In this document: piece after piece, positions 1 through 5,000 of the stretch
How the letters are laid out: each line of letters begins with the position of its first letter
Position numbering within the stretch: the stretch's first letter is position 1
IMG/VR virus record: IMGVR_UViG_2565956708_000003
DNA length: 5,000 bases
Source: a virus
Lineage: Duplodnaviria; Heunggongvirae; Uroviricota; Caudoviricetes
Direction: 5' to 3' (one strand)
The notes under the pieces: generated by a model
The model's input: only the letters and a program-made list of their open reading frames with translations
Told to the model about the DNA's origin: nothing
The model's database searches: none
Translations under genes and position numbers: made by a program

Positions 1-53
1 AAGCAGAAAAAGCTTATTATGCTTCCATCGGAAACGATGATCTGGCAGCCTGA
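1..53 (+). CDS. 3' end of the IS transposase orfB (partial, start outside window); frame uncertain
   Basis: Frame 3 reads AEKAYYASIGNDDLAA then stop (TGA 51-53), which looks like a transposase C-terminus ending shortly before the IRR. Frame 2 ends at 38-40 (SRKSLLCFHRKR-stop) and cannot be excluded. Not verifiable without the upstream sequence. Confidence 0.3.
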   Translation, partial: AEKAYYASIGNDDLAA

Positions 54-70
54 GTTCACAGATAAAACAC

Positions 71-95
71 TCTCCAGGAAACCCGGGGCGGTTCA
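71..95. repeat. Terminal inverted repeat (IRR) of the IS629-like element
   Basis: 25-nt terminus, 23/25 identical in inverted orientation to 4773-4797; mismatches only at the AA/TT dinucleotide in positions 15-16 of the repeat. Confidence 0.8.
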
Positions 96-941
96 ATCTT
101 TTGTGATCTGGTGTACGGAATTCACACCGGCAATGGTGAACGCATCACCAACCTGCAAGCCAGATGCAGATACCGTAATAGTCCCCTGTCGGTTATCAAC
201 TGGCATACCATTTGAATCTTTCGCTTCAACCTTGTGTTCAGGTTGGCCTGATACTGTCAAGGATTCAGTGCTTCCTTTCGGTAATCGACCAGAAATATCG
301 GTCTTGTAGCTATCGAAGGACGCAACCGGAGGGATTTGCGCTTTTTCGTATGCTGTCAGGGTTGCGCCCTGAGCATAGGCACGGTGACCAAGCTCGCCAG
401 CAAGGTCTTTGTAGTTGAAGGGGTTCCAGAAAGAGCGACGGTTGATACCCTGAGGTACACCAATCGCCGTCATGGTGGCATCAATACCTGCCGCACAGTT
501 CCACAAATCACGGCCCTGTGTACCTGCGGTTGAGTCAGCCATCGTGATCACGTTAGTAGCACGCTGCGTGACCATGGAAATCAGGTCAGAGTCAATCTGT
601 GCAGCAAGGCGCATACCTGCGGCGCGACCAGCTTCAGTTTTATGTTCCGGATCACGCATTTCACGCGCATCCAGAGTGTACAGAATGTTTTTCGGCTCCT
701 TGAACACTGAAGGAACAAGGCGCTGAACCAGTGCTGTTGGCGTTTTGCTGCTGAGGTCGAGGCCTTCCTCAATATTCATGTGGTAATGCTGCGGACGATA
801 CAGAACATCACCTGCTCGCTGCATTGCTGTATCACCGGGACGGAATTTTTTAGCGTTACGGGAAACTACGCAGGCGGCCTCAAAGCCTTCAACGTAGTTT
901 TCGAACATGATTTCAAGGTCTTTTGCTAATTGGTTAGCCAT
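93..941 (-). CDS. P22-like major capsid (coat) protein, N-terminal 282 aa only; C-terminally truncated at the IS junction, probably non-functional
   Basis: Translation aligns by eye with P22 gp5: [13 protein letters not shown] vs [41 protein letters not shown] vs [48 protein letters not shown] vs [46 protein letters not shown] vs [27 protein letters not shown]. P22 coat is about 430 aa, so roughly 150 C-terminal residues are missing. The stop TGA (93-95) lies entirely within the IS terminus. RBS GGAG (950-953, minus) sits 8 nt upstream of ATG (939-941). Confidence 0.8.
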   Translation of the reverse strand: [282 protein letters not shown]

Positions 942-959
942 GCTTAATGCTCCAATAGG

Positions 960-1853
960 TTATTTTTTTGCCTTTTTAGCGGCGAAATACGGCGTCCAGT
1001 CACCAGTTTCCAGCGCCTTGGCTTTCAATTTGTCGAGGTTGTTGATTACTGCGCCGTTGCTCCCCTTAACCGTCGGGGTTGTGGCTGCCGTGGTTTTTGC
1101 TTTTGGCATGATTCTGGCCTTCGATTCGATACGTTCCAGCAGACGACCAATTGCTACGGGGTTGGTAGCTTCTGCCAGTTGCTTGCGCAGTTCAGCGTTG
1201 CGACCAAGCGCCAGAACAACGATTTCCGGCTTCTCTGACTCAAACAGGATCGCGTTTTGTGTCTCGATGGGGATTTCCTCGAGTACGGCCTGCTCAGCTT
1301 CCTGATAGCCAGGAACTTTGAGAGCCTTAACACGTTGCTGATATTTGGATAATCGCTCTTGATAGGCAGCCTGAAGCTCCTGCTCCTTCTGCTTGCGAGC
1401 CATCTCCTGTTGCTGGTACTTGCCATTATCCTCTGCCCACTTAGCCATGCGTTGCTGGTAGATTTCTTCATCGAAACCGATGTCCTCATCATCCAGTTTT
1501 GGCATTCGCGGTGGTTGAGTGATTACCGGCTGCTGCTCGACGGGTTTCTGAGACTGACGCATCAGCTCTTTCAGCTCGCGGTCTTTCTCTTTAATCGTCT
1601 TGCGCAGGTGTTTTACCAGTCCATGCTCAGCGCCATCTTCGCTGGTTGGCGAATCCAGCTTTTCGTCACCAAAGTAGAATTCCTGTTCTGATTCGTCGTC
1701 ATCAGTTTCAGTAGCCTCCTCTGCATCATTGCCTGAGGACTCACTGCCATCTTCTGTTTCGACTTTTTCAGCCAGTTCGACATCATCAGGAATCTGCTCT
1801 GACGCGTCGGTTTCGATTTCAACTTCTGGTGTGTTTTCTGCCATCTGGTCCAT
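960..1853 (-). CDS. Phage scaffolding protein (P22 gp8-like), apparently full length (297 aa)
   Basis: Lies between portal and coat as in P22-like phages and is similar in size to P22 gp8 (about 303 aa). It has an acidic N-terminus, a central charged coiled-coil-like region rich in Q/E/K/R, and a basic C-terminal tail (KLKAKALETGDWTPYFAAKKAKK) resembling the P22 gp8 coat-binding C-terminus (...YRKLKAKLKGIR). RBS GGGG sits 6 nt upstream of ATG (1851-1853, minus). Sequence similarity to P22 gp8 is weak; the call rests mostly on synteny and architecture. Confidence 0.7.
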   Translation of the reverse strand: MDQMAENTPEVEIETDASEQIPDDVELAEKVETEDGSESSGNDAEEATETDDDESEQEFYFGDEKLDSPTSEDGAEHGLVKHLRKTIKEKDRELKELMRQSQKPVEQQPVITQPPRMPKLDDEDIGFDEEIYQQRMAKWAEDNGKYQQQEMARKQKEQELQAAYQERLSKYQQRVKALKVPGYQEAEQAVLEEIPIETQNAILFESEKPEIVVLALGRNAELRKQLAEATNPVAIGRLLERIESKARIMPKAKTTAATTPTVKGSNGAVINNLDKLKAKALETGDWTPYFAAKKAKK

Positions 1854-1943
1854 TTGTTACCCCTGTTTACTCGATGTTCAGCCCATCGGAAGGCAATAGG
1901 GTGCCAGGCCTCATAAAGACAGCCATTGCACGTTATGGGTTAA

Positions 1944-4142
1944 TTACTGCTGTGGTTGTTGCTGAGTTGATTTTTGCAGGATGCTGCTGATGTCCATGCG
2001 CTGCGCATGGCCCTGTGCCTGACTTTTCAGGACAAGCTCTGCATCAGCACGGGCATTGTCTCCTTGCTGTTGCTGGAACTGTCCGAGCAGTTTCAGAGCC
2101 TCGCGGATATCAGATTTCTGCTGGCTATCGGCAGATGCGAGGATTTTCACAACATTTGCCGCTGCAACCTGAGCATCAGTCTGTGCCTGGAATGCTTTAA
2201 CCTGAATGGCTGCCTGCTCGTTCTGCGCTTTCTGCAATTCAGCCTGACCAGCAAGAAGCTGACCTTGCGCAGCAACCATAGCCGGATCTGGCTGACTGGC
2301 CTGTTGTTGTTTCGCCTGCTCAACCATCTGCTGTTCTTCTGGCGTTCTCGGCTTGATAACTCCAGACAGAAGCAACTGATTGCGGTTGTATTCTTTAAGG
2401 TCGTCCATCCCTTCGCCGTCCATATTGTCGAGGATCATCGACGATACAAGGTCGTGTTTCGGCGTTCCGGGCGGGATAAGTGCCAGCATGGAAAGTAACG
2501 ACTTAACCGTTGCGTCACGGCGAGTAGCGAACGACTGACCGACATCGACAGTCACTTCATAGTTACCCTGCGAAAGGTCGTTAAGCGCGATAACCTGCCC
2601 TGTCTGACGGTCAACCACTTCACCAGTCATCAGCGCCACGTCATCGCTGCCGTCCTCATTAACGATACGCATCGGCGTATCGCTGCCATAGACTTCACGA
2701 GCCATAGAAAGCCACACAACGCCAGCGCGACGCATGGATTTAGCCATGTTGTCCATGTAGATATAGGACTGCGTATCCATCCGGTTAAAGATGCTATCAA
2801 CGGTATCGGTAGCAACGTTGCTCGGCATGTTCTCAAGCTGCGACGCACCTGTAATTTGCTGAATAGCCGTTCCGGTGTACTGCAATAGCCCGGCAAGAGC
2901 TGGAGGCATTTGTGTCGGAGGCGTATAACTGCTGACCTGAGCCTGCGCAGTAATATCTCCGTTTTTGTTTTTCAGACTGACCATCGGCAGGAACGCCGGG
3001 CGCTTTTTGTTGCGCTCCGCCCAATGAGTGGCGAGAGGACCAGGAATCATGTCAACATCAACTACAGGAATGCCATCACCGCCAGCCTGAGTAGCGTTAT
3101 CTGCAATCATGGAAACCATCAGGTTCTCAAGACGCTGTGCATCCATCGCTTTTGCTGCGTGGCCTTCGATTCGTTCCTGATTATCAACAAATGAGCGACG
3201 TCCATATACCGGGATGAGAGGAATATGTTCGCCCGGAATACGCTTCGGTTCTTCCAGCCATTCAGCGCCAGACAGAAGGCCGCAATAAACGCGGCGTTTC
3301 TTCACCGTTCGCTCGCCAATCAGTTCGAATGCACCATCGGTCAGCTCGTCGACAATATCTTTGATTTGCTCTTCATCATAGATTGCCGTTTCTCCGCTAA
3401 CAGGGTTGCGCCATGCCGTGAGCTTCACCTTCTCTATGCGAACTTCGTAGTAGCGCCCAACATAGATGGCATCTGGCGTTGACCAGTCATATTGAGTGCC
3501 AGTCTCATCACGAGAAAGGCCTGCCGCGATGGAATCAGGGTATTCAGCCTCGAACGCTTTAGGCGTCATGGAGAACATTTCCATAGCCCACATAGCATCA
3601 GAACGGTCATATTGCTTGCTGTCCTGATCGAAGAAGACGCATGTCGCTGGGTCGTAAACAGGAAGAAGGCTGATGCGTCGCTGCTCGTTACTTGGGTCCA
3701 TTTCATCTTCGTAATCGGCACACATGCGGAAACAACCGAATCCGCCCGTTACAGCATCATCAAATGCGTTATCACACGCTTCGCCACCTGATGTTTCCTG
3801 ATAGTCAGCGCGGAATTTGCCGTTCATCTTTTTGGCTAACGCTTCCGATGCCTTGTCATCCTTCGGCCTGAATTTAACGCTGATGCGATTCTGTCGATAC
3901 TCGCCAATGATGCGATCACATTCACGGGCAATCTTATTCAGTTCAAAGCGCGGGTAATGCTCAAACCTGCCTTCATCAAATGAGTAACCAGCGTTTGTGC
4001 TGCCTTCCCACTGTGCGCCGGATACCCGGACGAAACGTTGAGCCTCAATAATCTGCTCACGCATATCCTGCGTTGCTGACCAGGCATTATCAAAGTTGCA
4101 CAGCACCTTGCGATGCCAGTCAGTCATCTTTTTTTCTGCCAT
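1944..4142 (-). CDS. Phage portal protein, P22 gp1-like (732 aa) with long C-terminal helical extension
   Basis: Long collinear similarity to P22 gp1 (725 aa): DYEDEMDPSNEQ...DQDSKQYDRSDA vs DYEDQSPTSNNQ...DSNSKLMDKSDA; IGERTVKKRRVY vs IAERQIKRRRVY; GEHIPLIPVYG vs GEHIPIVPVFG; C-terminus PRTPEEQQMVEQAKQQQASQPDPAMVAAQGQLLAGQAELQKAQN vs [44 protein letters not shown] and DNARADAELVLKSQAQGHAQRMDISSILQ vs [29 protein letters not shown]. The start ATG (4140-4142) is separated by 1 nt from the upstream gene's stop (TGAtATG). Confidence 0.93.
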   Translation of the reverse strand: MAEKKMTDWHRKVLCNFDNAWSATQDMREQIIEAQRFVRVSGAQWEGSTNAGYSFDEGRFEHYPRFELNKIARECDRIIGEYRQNRISVKFRPKDDKASEALAKKMNGKFRADYQETSGGEACDNAFDDAVTGGFGCFRMCADYEDEMDPSNEQRRISLLPVYDPATCVFFDQDSKQYDRSDAMWAMEMFSMTPKAFEAEYPDSIAAGLSRDETGTQYDWSTPDAIYVGRYYEVRIEKVKLTAWRNPVSGETAIYDEEQIKDIVDELTDGAFELIGERTVKKRRVYCGLLSGAEWLEEPKRIPGEHIPLIPVYGRRSFVDNQERIEGHAAKAMDAQRLENLMVSMIADNATQAGGDGIPVVDVDMIPGPLATHWAERNKKRPAFLPMVSLKNKNGDITAQAQVSSYTPPTQMPPALAGLLQYTGTAIQQITGASQLENMPSNVATDTVDSIFNRMDTQSYIYMDNMAKSMRRAGVVWLSMAREVYGSDTPMRIVNEDGSDDVALMTGEVVDRQTGQVIALNDLSQGNYEVTVDVGQSFATRRDATVKSLLSMLALIPPGTPKHDLVSSMILDNMDGEGMDDLKEYNRNQLLLSGVIKPRTPEEQQMVEQAKQQQASQPDPAMVAAQGQLLAGQAELQKAQNEQAAIQVKAFQAQTDAQVAAANVVKILASADSQQKSDIREALKLLGQFQQQQGDNARADAELVLKSQAQGHAQRMDISSILQKSTQQQPQQ

Positions 4143-4143
4143 A

Positions 4144-4772
4144 TCAACCTACACCACAAGGAATTGAGTAACTGGAATAGTCGGGTTGCGCAGCCGACTC
4201 CGGGCAATGCATACACATCATCAGCGCATCAGCCAGGTTAGGAGATGGGATACCGAGCTTCTGCTTCATTTCGACCTTAGTCATAAGCTCCAGTTTCCCG
4301 TTATTATTGAATTTGCGCTGAATCTGCGTCAGTTCTGCAAACAGTTTCTCCAGCATCTTCTCGCCTATCGCTTCTTTGTCGAAGCTCAGCATGTCGTCGG
4401 GGTCTGCATACTCACCGTGGACAACCGCCCGATATGTCAGATACAGCCTGTCAGCCAGCGCGTAATAGAATTGCGCTCGCTTATTGCGGAATACATCGCC
4501 AATAGTGCGAACGTTGTCACCCTGTACGACTTCATCAGCCCATGCTCCGGCCTGATACGGAGCATCTTCATCGAATGGCGATTCGCTGCCCTTGAACATC
4601 GTGGCGGTAATTTTCTTGCCGGAGAATGCTTCCGTTGTCTGTCTGCGTAGCCCTGCACCGACACCATCGCCATCCCACAGGTAATGGTCAGCGCCGTCTT
4701 CAATCGCCAGCGAAGTAGCCCAGTCAGCACCCTCGTTGATGTCCATCAGCAGACCTTCGGCAATGCGCTTAA
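4144..4772 (-). pseudogene. Large terminase subunit (TerL), C-terminal nuclease-domain fragment of about 209 codons; N-terminal ATPase domain removed at the IS junction
   Basis: Sits immediately upstream of portal with a 1-nt gap, as TerL does in P22-like phages. It contains a C-terminal ...LGIPSPNLADALMMC... motif resembling the conserved acidic motif near the end of terminase nuclease domains. The reading frame is open from the IS boundary (4772) through the first Met (4746) to the stop at 4144-4146; the frame continues upstream into the IS for 8 codons before a stop, with no native start. TerL proteins are about 450-500 aa, so roughly 290 N-terminal residues are absent. Confidence 0.72.
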
Positions 4773-4797
4773 TGAACCGCCCCGGGAATCCTGGAGA
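4773..4797. repeat. Terminal inverted repeat (IRL) of the IS629-like element
   Basis: TGAACCGCCCCGGGAATCCTGGAGA; begins with TG, 23/25 inverted match to 71-95, and lies 29 nt upstream of the orfA ATG. Confidence 0.85.
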
Positions 4798-4826
4798 CTA
4801 AACTTCCTGAGAAAGAGGTAAACAGG

Positions 4827-5000
4827 ATGACTAAAAATACTCGTTTTTCCCCCGAAGTCCGTCAACGGGCAGTCCGTATGGTTCTGGAAAGTCAGAGCGA
4901 ATATGACTCACAATGGGCGACAATTTGTTCCATTGCTCCAAAGATTGGCTGTACGCCGGAGACTCTGCGTGTCTGGGTTCGCCAGCATGAGCGGGATACC
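4827..5000 (+). CDS. IS3-family transposase OrfA (N-terminal 58 codons; continues past window end)
   Basis: ATG at 4827 with upstream AGAGG; the translation is a typical IS3-family OrfA N-terminus with an HTH region ([18 protein letters not shown]). The frame is open to the window edge. Confidence 0.9.

Follow-up and report, generated by a model that had tools for sequence, protein, structure and literature searches.

The DNA analysed here, a stretch of 5,000 nt hereafter called the window, almost certainly owes its structure to IS629 having transposed, in a simple event, into codon 282 of the coat gene in an E. coli prophage that is CUS-3-like and of the P22 type. The locus represents a clean example of IS629 grounding a prophage, with two insertions in essential late genes. 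All phage genes in the window are encoded by the minus strand and correspond to the 3′ part of terL, the portal gene, the scaffold gene and the coat gene. The features that we recognized are as follows.

1..95, plus strand: right (orfB-distal) terminus of a copy of IS629/IS1203, an IS3-family element, with 100% identity to members of the IS1203 family
93..95, minus strand: TGA that closes the truncated coat ORF in frame, supplied by the outermost three bases of the IS (TGAACCGCC...)
96..98, minus strand: codon 282 (GAT, Asp), one copy of the target duplication, the second copy being beyond the IS, outside the window
941..96, minus strand, with stop TGA at 95..93: truncated coat ORF (ORF list and translation)
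96..941, minus strand: codons 1-282 of 417, the 5′ two-thirds, of a major capsid (coat) gene that is P22-like and of CUS-3 type (100% DNA identity to CUS-3)
950..953, minus strand: ribosome-binding site GGAG, intact, 8 nt upstream of the coat ATG (941..939), read from the sequence
960..1853, minus strand: intact scaffolding protein gene, 297 aa (ORF list; annotated as phage scaffold in CUS-3 and relatives)
1944..4142, minus strand: intact P22-like portal gene, 732 aa (PF16510, E = 2.1e-169; CUS-3 annotation)
4144..4772, minus strand: 3′ fragment of the terminase large-subunit gene terL (ORF list; intact terL is continuous across the site in UTI89)
4773..5000, plus strand: left terminus of another IS629 copy, 228 bases running to the end of the window (left inverted repeat TGAACCGCCCCGGGAATCC..., orfA ATG at 4827)

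The coat stop codon and the IS terminus

Translation of the minus strand from position 941 gives a 282-aa ORF that ends with ...HQITKD and is immediately followed by TGA at 95..93, and the original prediction had located both the end of the coat frame and its stop correctly to the base. Matches to intact coat genes start exactly at position 96 and extend to position 1000 with 100% identity in the prophages of UTI89, IHE3034, NU14, APEC O18 and many other strains, and position 95 is an a in the window and a t in the intact gene (UTI89; position 6000 of locus L001). Because identity begins at position 96 and position 95 differs, the boundary between IS and host DNA is unambiguous on the coat side and the TGA is IS sequence. 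At the place of this TGA the intact gene has ACC (Thr283), and the uninterrupted coat gene of UTI89 reads GAT ACC ACC GGT across the insertion site. The proposal that the IS terminus donates the coat stop codon was thus confirmed, and the observation is real.

The segment at positions 1-95 holds the last 16 codons of the transposase gene orfB and its stop codon (TGA at 51-53), and closes at position 95 with the right terminal inverted repeat ...CCCGGGGCGGTTCA. This segment matches, at 100% identity, the terminus of elements annotated as 'IS3-like element IS1203 family transposase', and it finds a match with at least 80% coverage in 4062 of the 5426 complete E. coli genomes searched. The complete element is seen at the coat site of L002, a gap-free chromosome of 4.97 Mb (GCA_964052585.1), where it measures 1310 bp (TGAACCGCC...GGCGGTTCA) and is bordered by a GAT/GAT target duplication. 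It encodes a 108-aa orfA product (HTH_Tnp_1, PF01527) followed by a 295-aa orfB product (PF13276, rve PF00665 and PF13683). The element shows near-identity to IS629/IS1203 and its two-ORF layout with a helix-turn-helix orfA and a DDE/rve orfB. Its termini TGAAC...GTTCA are inverted repeats with the 5′-TG...CA-3′ ends of this group, TGAACCGCCCCGGG... and ...CCCGGGGCGGTTCA being complementary at 14 of 14 terminal bases. IS629 reportedly duplicates 3-4 bp of its target (PMC3271280), and short duplications of this kind are found here, GAT at coat and TTA at terL.

Both ends of IS629 start with TGA, so that an insertion at a codon boundary terminates the host frame immediately, whichever way the element is oriented, and the chance of an immediate stop upon insertion of IS629 inside a gene is one in three. 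In the other two frames entering by this IS end, 53 or 13 codons are read into the element. The terL insertion fell in another frame, and the terL 5′ fragment gains 53 IS-encoded codons before stopping. The in-frame TGA in coat is real, yet it is no statistically remarkable coincidence. A promoter scan of window positions 1-1100 revealed no promoter-like site, and a terminator scan of the same region returned a single terminator-like hairpin (86..74, within the IS end), where chance alone would give 1.1; the hairpin was dropped as a meaningful signal.

Position of the break in the coat protein

Full-length homologs of the coat protein are not about 280 aa long: the intact protein has 417 aa in UTI89 and IMT5155 (PDB 8SKG was deposited without Met1 and has 416 residues), and that of P22 has 430 aa. 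Alignment to full-length coats, which the original prediction had proposed for mapping the breakpoint, puts the break at residue 282 of 417, upstream of the natural stop. The fragment matches PF11651 with an E-value of 2.7e-44 and 152 bits (cut-off 24) over profile positions 1-288 of 423, while the intact coat covers positions 1-423. This profile match assigns the protein to the P22-like major capsid family; the earlier assignment to a P22-like coat was refined to a CUS-3-type coat, as opposed to P22's own. Residues 2-282 are identical to residues 1-281 of 8SKG, the cryo-EM structure of the CUS-3 capsid, which puts the protein on the CUS-3 branch of the family. By comparison, P22 gp5 is only distant in sequence (phmmer E = 1.5e-38 over residues 13-357; 430 versus 417 aa).

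Domains were mapped on the solved CUS-3 and P22 structures and with the literature; a single-sequence AlphaFold2 model of the 282-aa fragment (mean pLDDT 36.9, pTM 0.26) was too poor for use. The I-domain (insertion domain) spans residues 223-337 in CUS-3 and 223-345 in P22 (PMC11243222) and separates beta1 from beta3 in the 5-stranded sheet of the A-domain, into which it is inserted (PMC5701804). Residue 282 is thus within the I-domain, as had been predicted for a P22-type coat. Aligned to the intact coat, the NMR structure of the CUS-3 I-domain (6MNT) covers residues 222-337, and of its 126-residue chain only residues 3-63 are matched by the 282-aa product. Coat K281 aligns with K286 of P22 gp5 (PDB 5UU5 and 2XYY; I-domain 2M5S), which places the break at about P22 residue 287, and Asp282 is located mid-way in the six-stranded I-domain barrel.

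The fragment is predicted to keep the region before the I-domain and the first 60 of its 115 residues. The 135 residues that it would lack comprise the second half of the I-domain barrel, the subsequent A-domain strands and the C-terminal segment. In a full-length subunit the I-domain is complete and is followed by A- and P-domain elements, and with its stop at residue 282 of 417 the product falls short of this. Because half of the I-domain, the later A-domain strands and the C-terminal segment are missing, the topology soundly argues that the fragment would be unable to form a complete HK97-fold subunit or to act as an assembly-competent one. Misfolding or degradation would be its probable fate.

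Since GGAG and the start codon are intact, the 282-aa fragment could be translated if the late operon is transcribed. We considered whether it is retained as a functional product, for example one that interferes with capsid assembly in a dominant-negative manner and thereby shields the host from related phages, and judge this very unlikely. The intact translation signals, the preservation of the N-terminal two-thirds of the coat, the presence of the allele in several samples and the lack of decay of the flanking 4.7 kb relative to CUS-3 are what such a role would lead one to expect. However, a recent event accounts better for the zero divergence from CUS-3, and sharing among samples fits clonal descent, given that the terL insertion is shared as well. 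In addition, late genes are silent in a lysogen, and half an I-domain barrel together with the missing part of the A-domain sheet predict misfolding. The allele is also absent from all 5426 complete RefSeq E. coli genomes searched, in which neither coat::IS junction was found and the best matches halt at the IS boundary. There is only a slim chance that the fragment, made when a superinfecting relative triggers late transcription, could poison the assembly of CUS-3-type or P22-like capsids; if it did, the 282-aa fragment would be an accidental, IS-generated superinfection defence.

Carrier loci and reconstruction of the insertion

The exact 282-aa product was looked up in public contigs, which returned 15 carriers. 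The reverse complement of the window occurs exactly in two of the returned loci, the gap-free chromosome L002 and the draft scaffold L003 (GCA_000494955.1). In L003, window positions 5000..1 correspond to positions 5942-10941, exactly between two runs of N. These N gaps are the unassembled interiors of two IS629 copies, and the boundaries of the window are set by assembly gaps, not by biology. The coat junction is read into the IS in L002, in the NCBI drafts L003, L004 and L005, and in L006, L007, L009 and L011, which are short Logan/ENA read-assembly contigs from separate samples. Two ENA metagenome contigs, L008 and L010, end at codon 282 or 2 nt past it, short of IS sequence, and L010 terminates with ...GATAC, consistent with an intact gene. 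Both were left out as evidence for the insertion, since their '282-aa' product may simply reflect truncation at the end of the contig.

The coat site of L002 reads ...ACAAAAGAT, IS, GATACCACC..., where uninterrupted UTI89 has ...ACAAAAGATACCACC. This is a simple 1310-bp insertion accompanied by a 3-bp duplication of GAT (codon 282, coat nt 844-846), and the remaining 135 coat codons are found directly beyond the IS in L002, outside the window. Removal of the IS and one GAT from L002 yields a gene of 1254 nt with 0 mismatches to the uninterrupted coat gene of E. coli APEC IMT5155, which bears out the proposal that the junction is base-precise and permits an exact reconstruction of the event. 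According to the mechanism that we propose, the transposase would have cut the two strands in a staggered fashion around GAT (coat nt 844-846), leaving the triplet duplicated on both sides of the IS. The transposase genes are convergent to coat, such that the coat frame enters the IS by its right end. Because the insertion fell on a codon boundary, the 5′-TGA of the IS is in frame and Asp282 is the last residue encoded.

The 3′ part of the coat gene (L002 positions 12157-12567) shows 10 differences from CUS-3 and UTI89 over its 411 nt, and they are confined to the final ~220 nt. Nine of the ten differences are synonymous and one changes Ala to Ser. This variant is 100% identical to the prophages of ATCC 11775, S88, APEC O1 and IMT5155. 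We rejected the possibility that the ten differences reflect decay after the insertion, since nine of them are synonymous and the variant is identical to intact genes elsewhere. They mark a mosaic boundary within coat.

The window ends inside the IS, so that the window alone would also be compatible with an IS-mediated deletion or rearrangement in which the 3′ third of coat was lost rather than interrupted, and two direct IS629 copies are a substrate for deletions. This is extremely improbable: the 3′ part of coat directly follows the IS in L002, L003 and L004, L002 is gap-free with a perfect 3-bp duplication, and its reconstruction yields an exact intact allele. The deletion is refuted for the assemblies examined, in which the event is an insertion with the 3′ part of coat kept beyond the IS. 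An assembly or scaffolding artefact joining an IS repeat to a prophage contig, suggested by the position of the window between two N runs of a draft scaffold and by the reputation of IS copies as classic misassembly sites, has a negligible probability and is ruled out because the identical junction recurs across drafts (L004 and L005 among them) and separate read-assembly contigs; it is also present in gap-free L002, and target duplications occur at both IS copies.

The second IS629 copy and the state of the prophage

The IS629 insertion into codon 282 of coat is accompanied by a second one in terL. In L002 the terL site reads ...GGTAGTTA, IS, TTAAGCGC..., a simple insertion with duplication of TTA, one copy of which corresponds to window positions 4770-4772. 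Both IS629 copies of L002 are 1310 bp long and point the same way, with a difference between them at only one of the 1310 nt; the terL copy is located at positions 4860-6169. The terL fragment gave a weak match to Terminase_3C, below the Pfam cut-off.

Unlike an intact CUS-3 prophage, in which terL and coat are uninterrupted, the prophage studied here carries IS629 in both genes. The separate copy in terL, 4.7 kb up the late operon, would independently destroy DNA packaging. Each insertion alone would be lethal for phage production, the one in coat by blocking capsid assembly and the one in terL by blocking packaging. The prophage is thus presumably defective, doubly disabled and grounded. The insertion is probably recent because the 4.7 kb are identical to CUS-3, without decay.

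Both insertions are common to three large assemblies. L003 contains a third N-filled gap with IS629 ends (positions 19026-20150) inside the gene for the ejection protein gp16, which suggests a further IS629 insertion in gp16 of the GCA_000494955.1 prophage; gp16 is intact in L002 and L004. Taken with this third gap, the shared insertions point to clonal inheritance with continuing IS activity. Within L002 positions 4860-12156, the two direct IS629 copies bracket a 4.68-kb 'terL-portal-scaffold-coat' segment in an arrangement that resembles a composite transposon and could serve as a deletion substrate. No deletion derivative between the two copies was found in the 5426 complete RefSeq E. coli genomes.

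Window positions 96-4772 (4677 nt) are 100% identical to phage CUS-3 (CP000711.1), the K1-specific P22-like prophage of E. coli RS218. The allele described here therefore shares with the CUS-3 coat (CP000711.1; 8SKG and 6MNT) residues 1-282 and the surrounding 4677 nt, and differs from it by being split after codon 282 and by a 3′ part of the IMT5155/S88/APEC O1/ATCC 11775 variant. On the side of the IS, the element is the same as the IS629/IS1203 of E. coli (e.g. O157:H7), with the same 3-bp duplication, preference for prophages and gene inactivation, and 62% of the IS629 copies in O157:H7 genomes sit in prophages (PMC3271280). In contrast to the lambdoid Stx phages, the host of IS629 is here a CUS-3-type P22-like phage of relatives of K1-type extraintestinal E. 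coli. A literature search for CUS-3 together with IS629 found no paper, and a broader one on CUS-3, neuO and insertion sequences found nothing describing a coat::IS629 allele. This allele may thus be undescribed, yet it is no new kind of thing: both partners, IS629/IS1203 and the CUS-3 coat, are fully characterized, and inactivation by an IS-end stop is textbook. Truncation of coat is an ordinary route to prophage disablement, and its biological interest is small.

The allele should carry a pseudogene annotation and not be listed as a 282-aa 'coat protein'. Its coat::IS629 junction and the terL::IS629 junction can serve as exact markers of the clonal sublineage in which they occur. A carrier strain should retain any lysogenic-conversion genes present in the prophage without releasing phage, which is relevant to studies in such strains of CUS-3-encoded traits such as capsule O-acetylation, whose genes are outside the examined sequence.

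Two other ORFs deserve a brief description. The N-terminal third of the 297-aa scaffolding protein (960-1853), which belongs to a well-known functional class, is strongly acidic; a Pfam search with this protein gave no match. In L002, an ORF at positions ~12062-12567 is open from ~95 nt inside the left end of the IS, antisense to orfA, and continues in frame into the 3′ part of coat. This ORF across the junction between the IS and the coat 3′ part is called in L003 and L004 as a 167-aa 'P22_CoatProtein' with a non-ATG start, a product that is predicted only.
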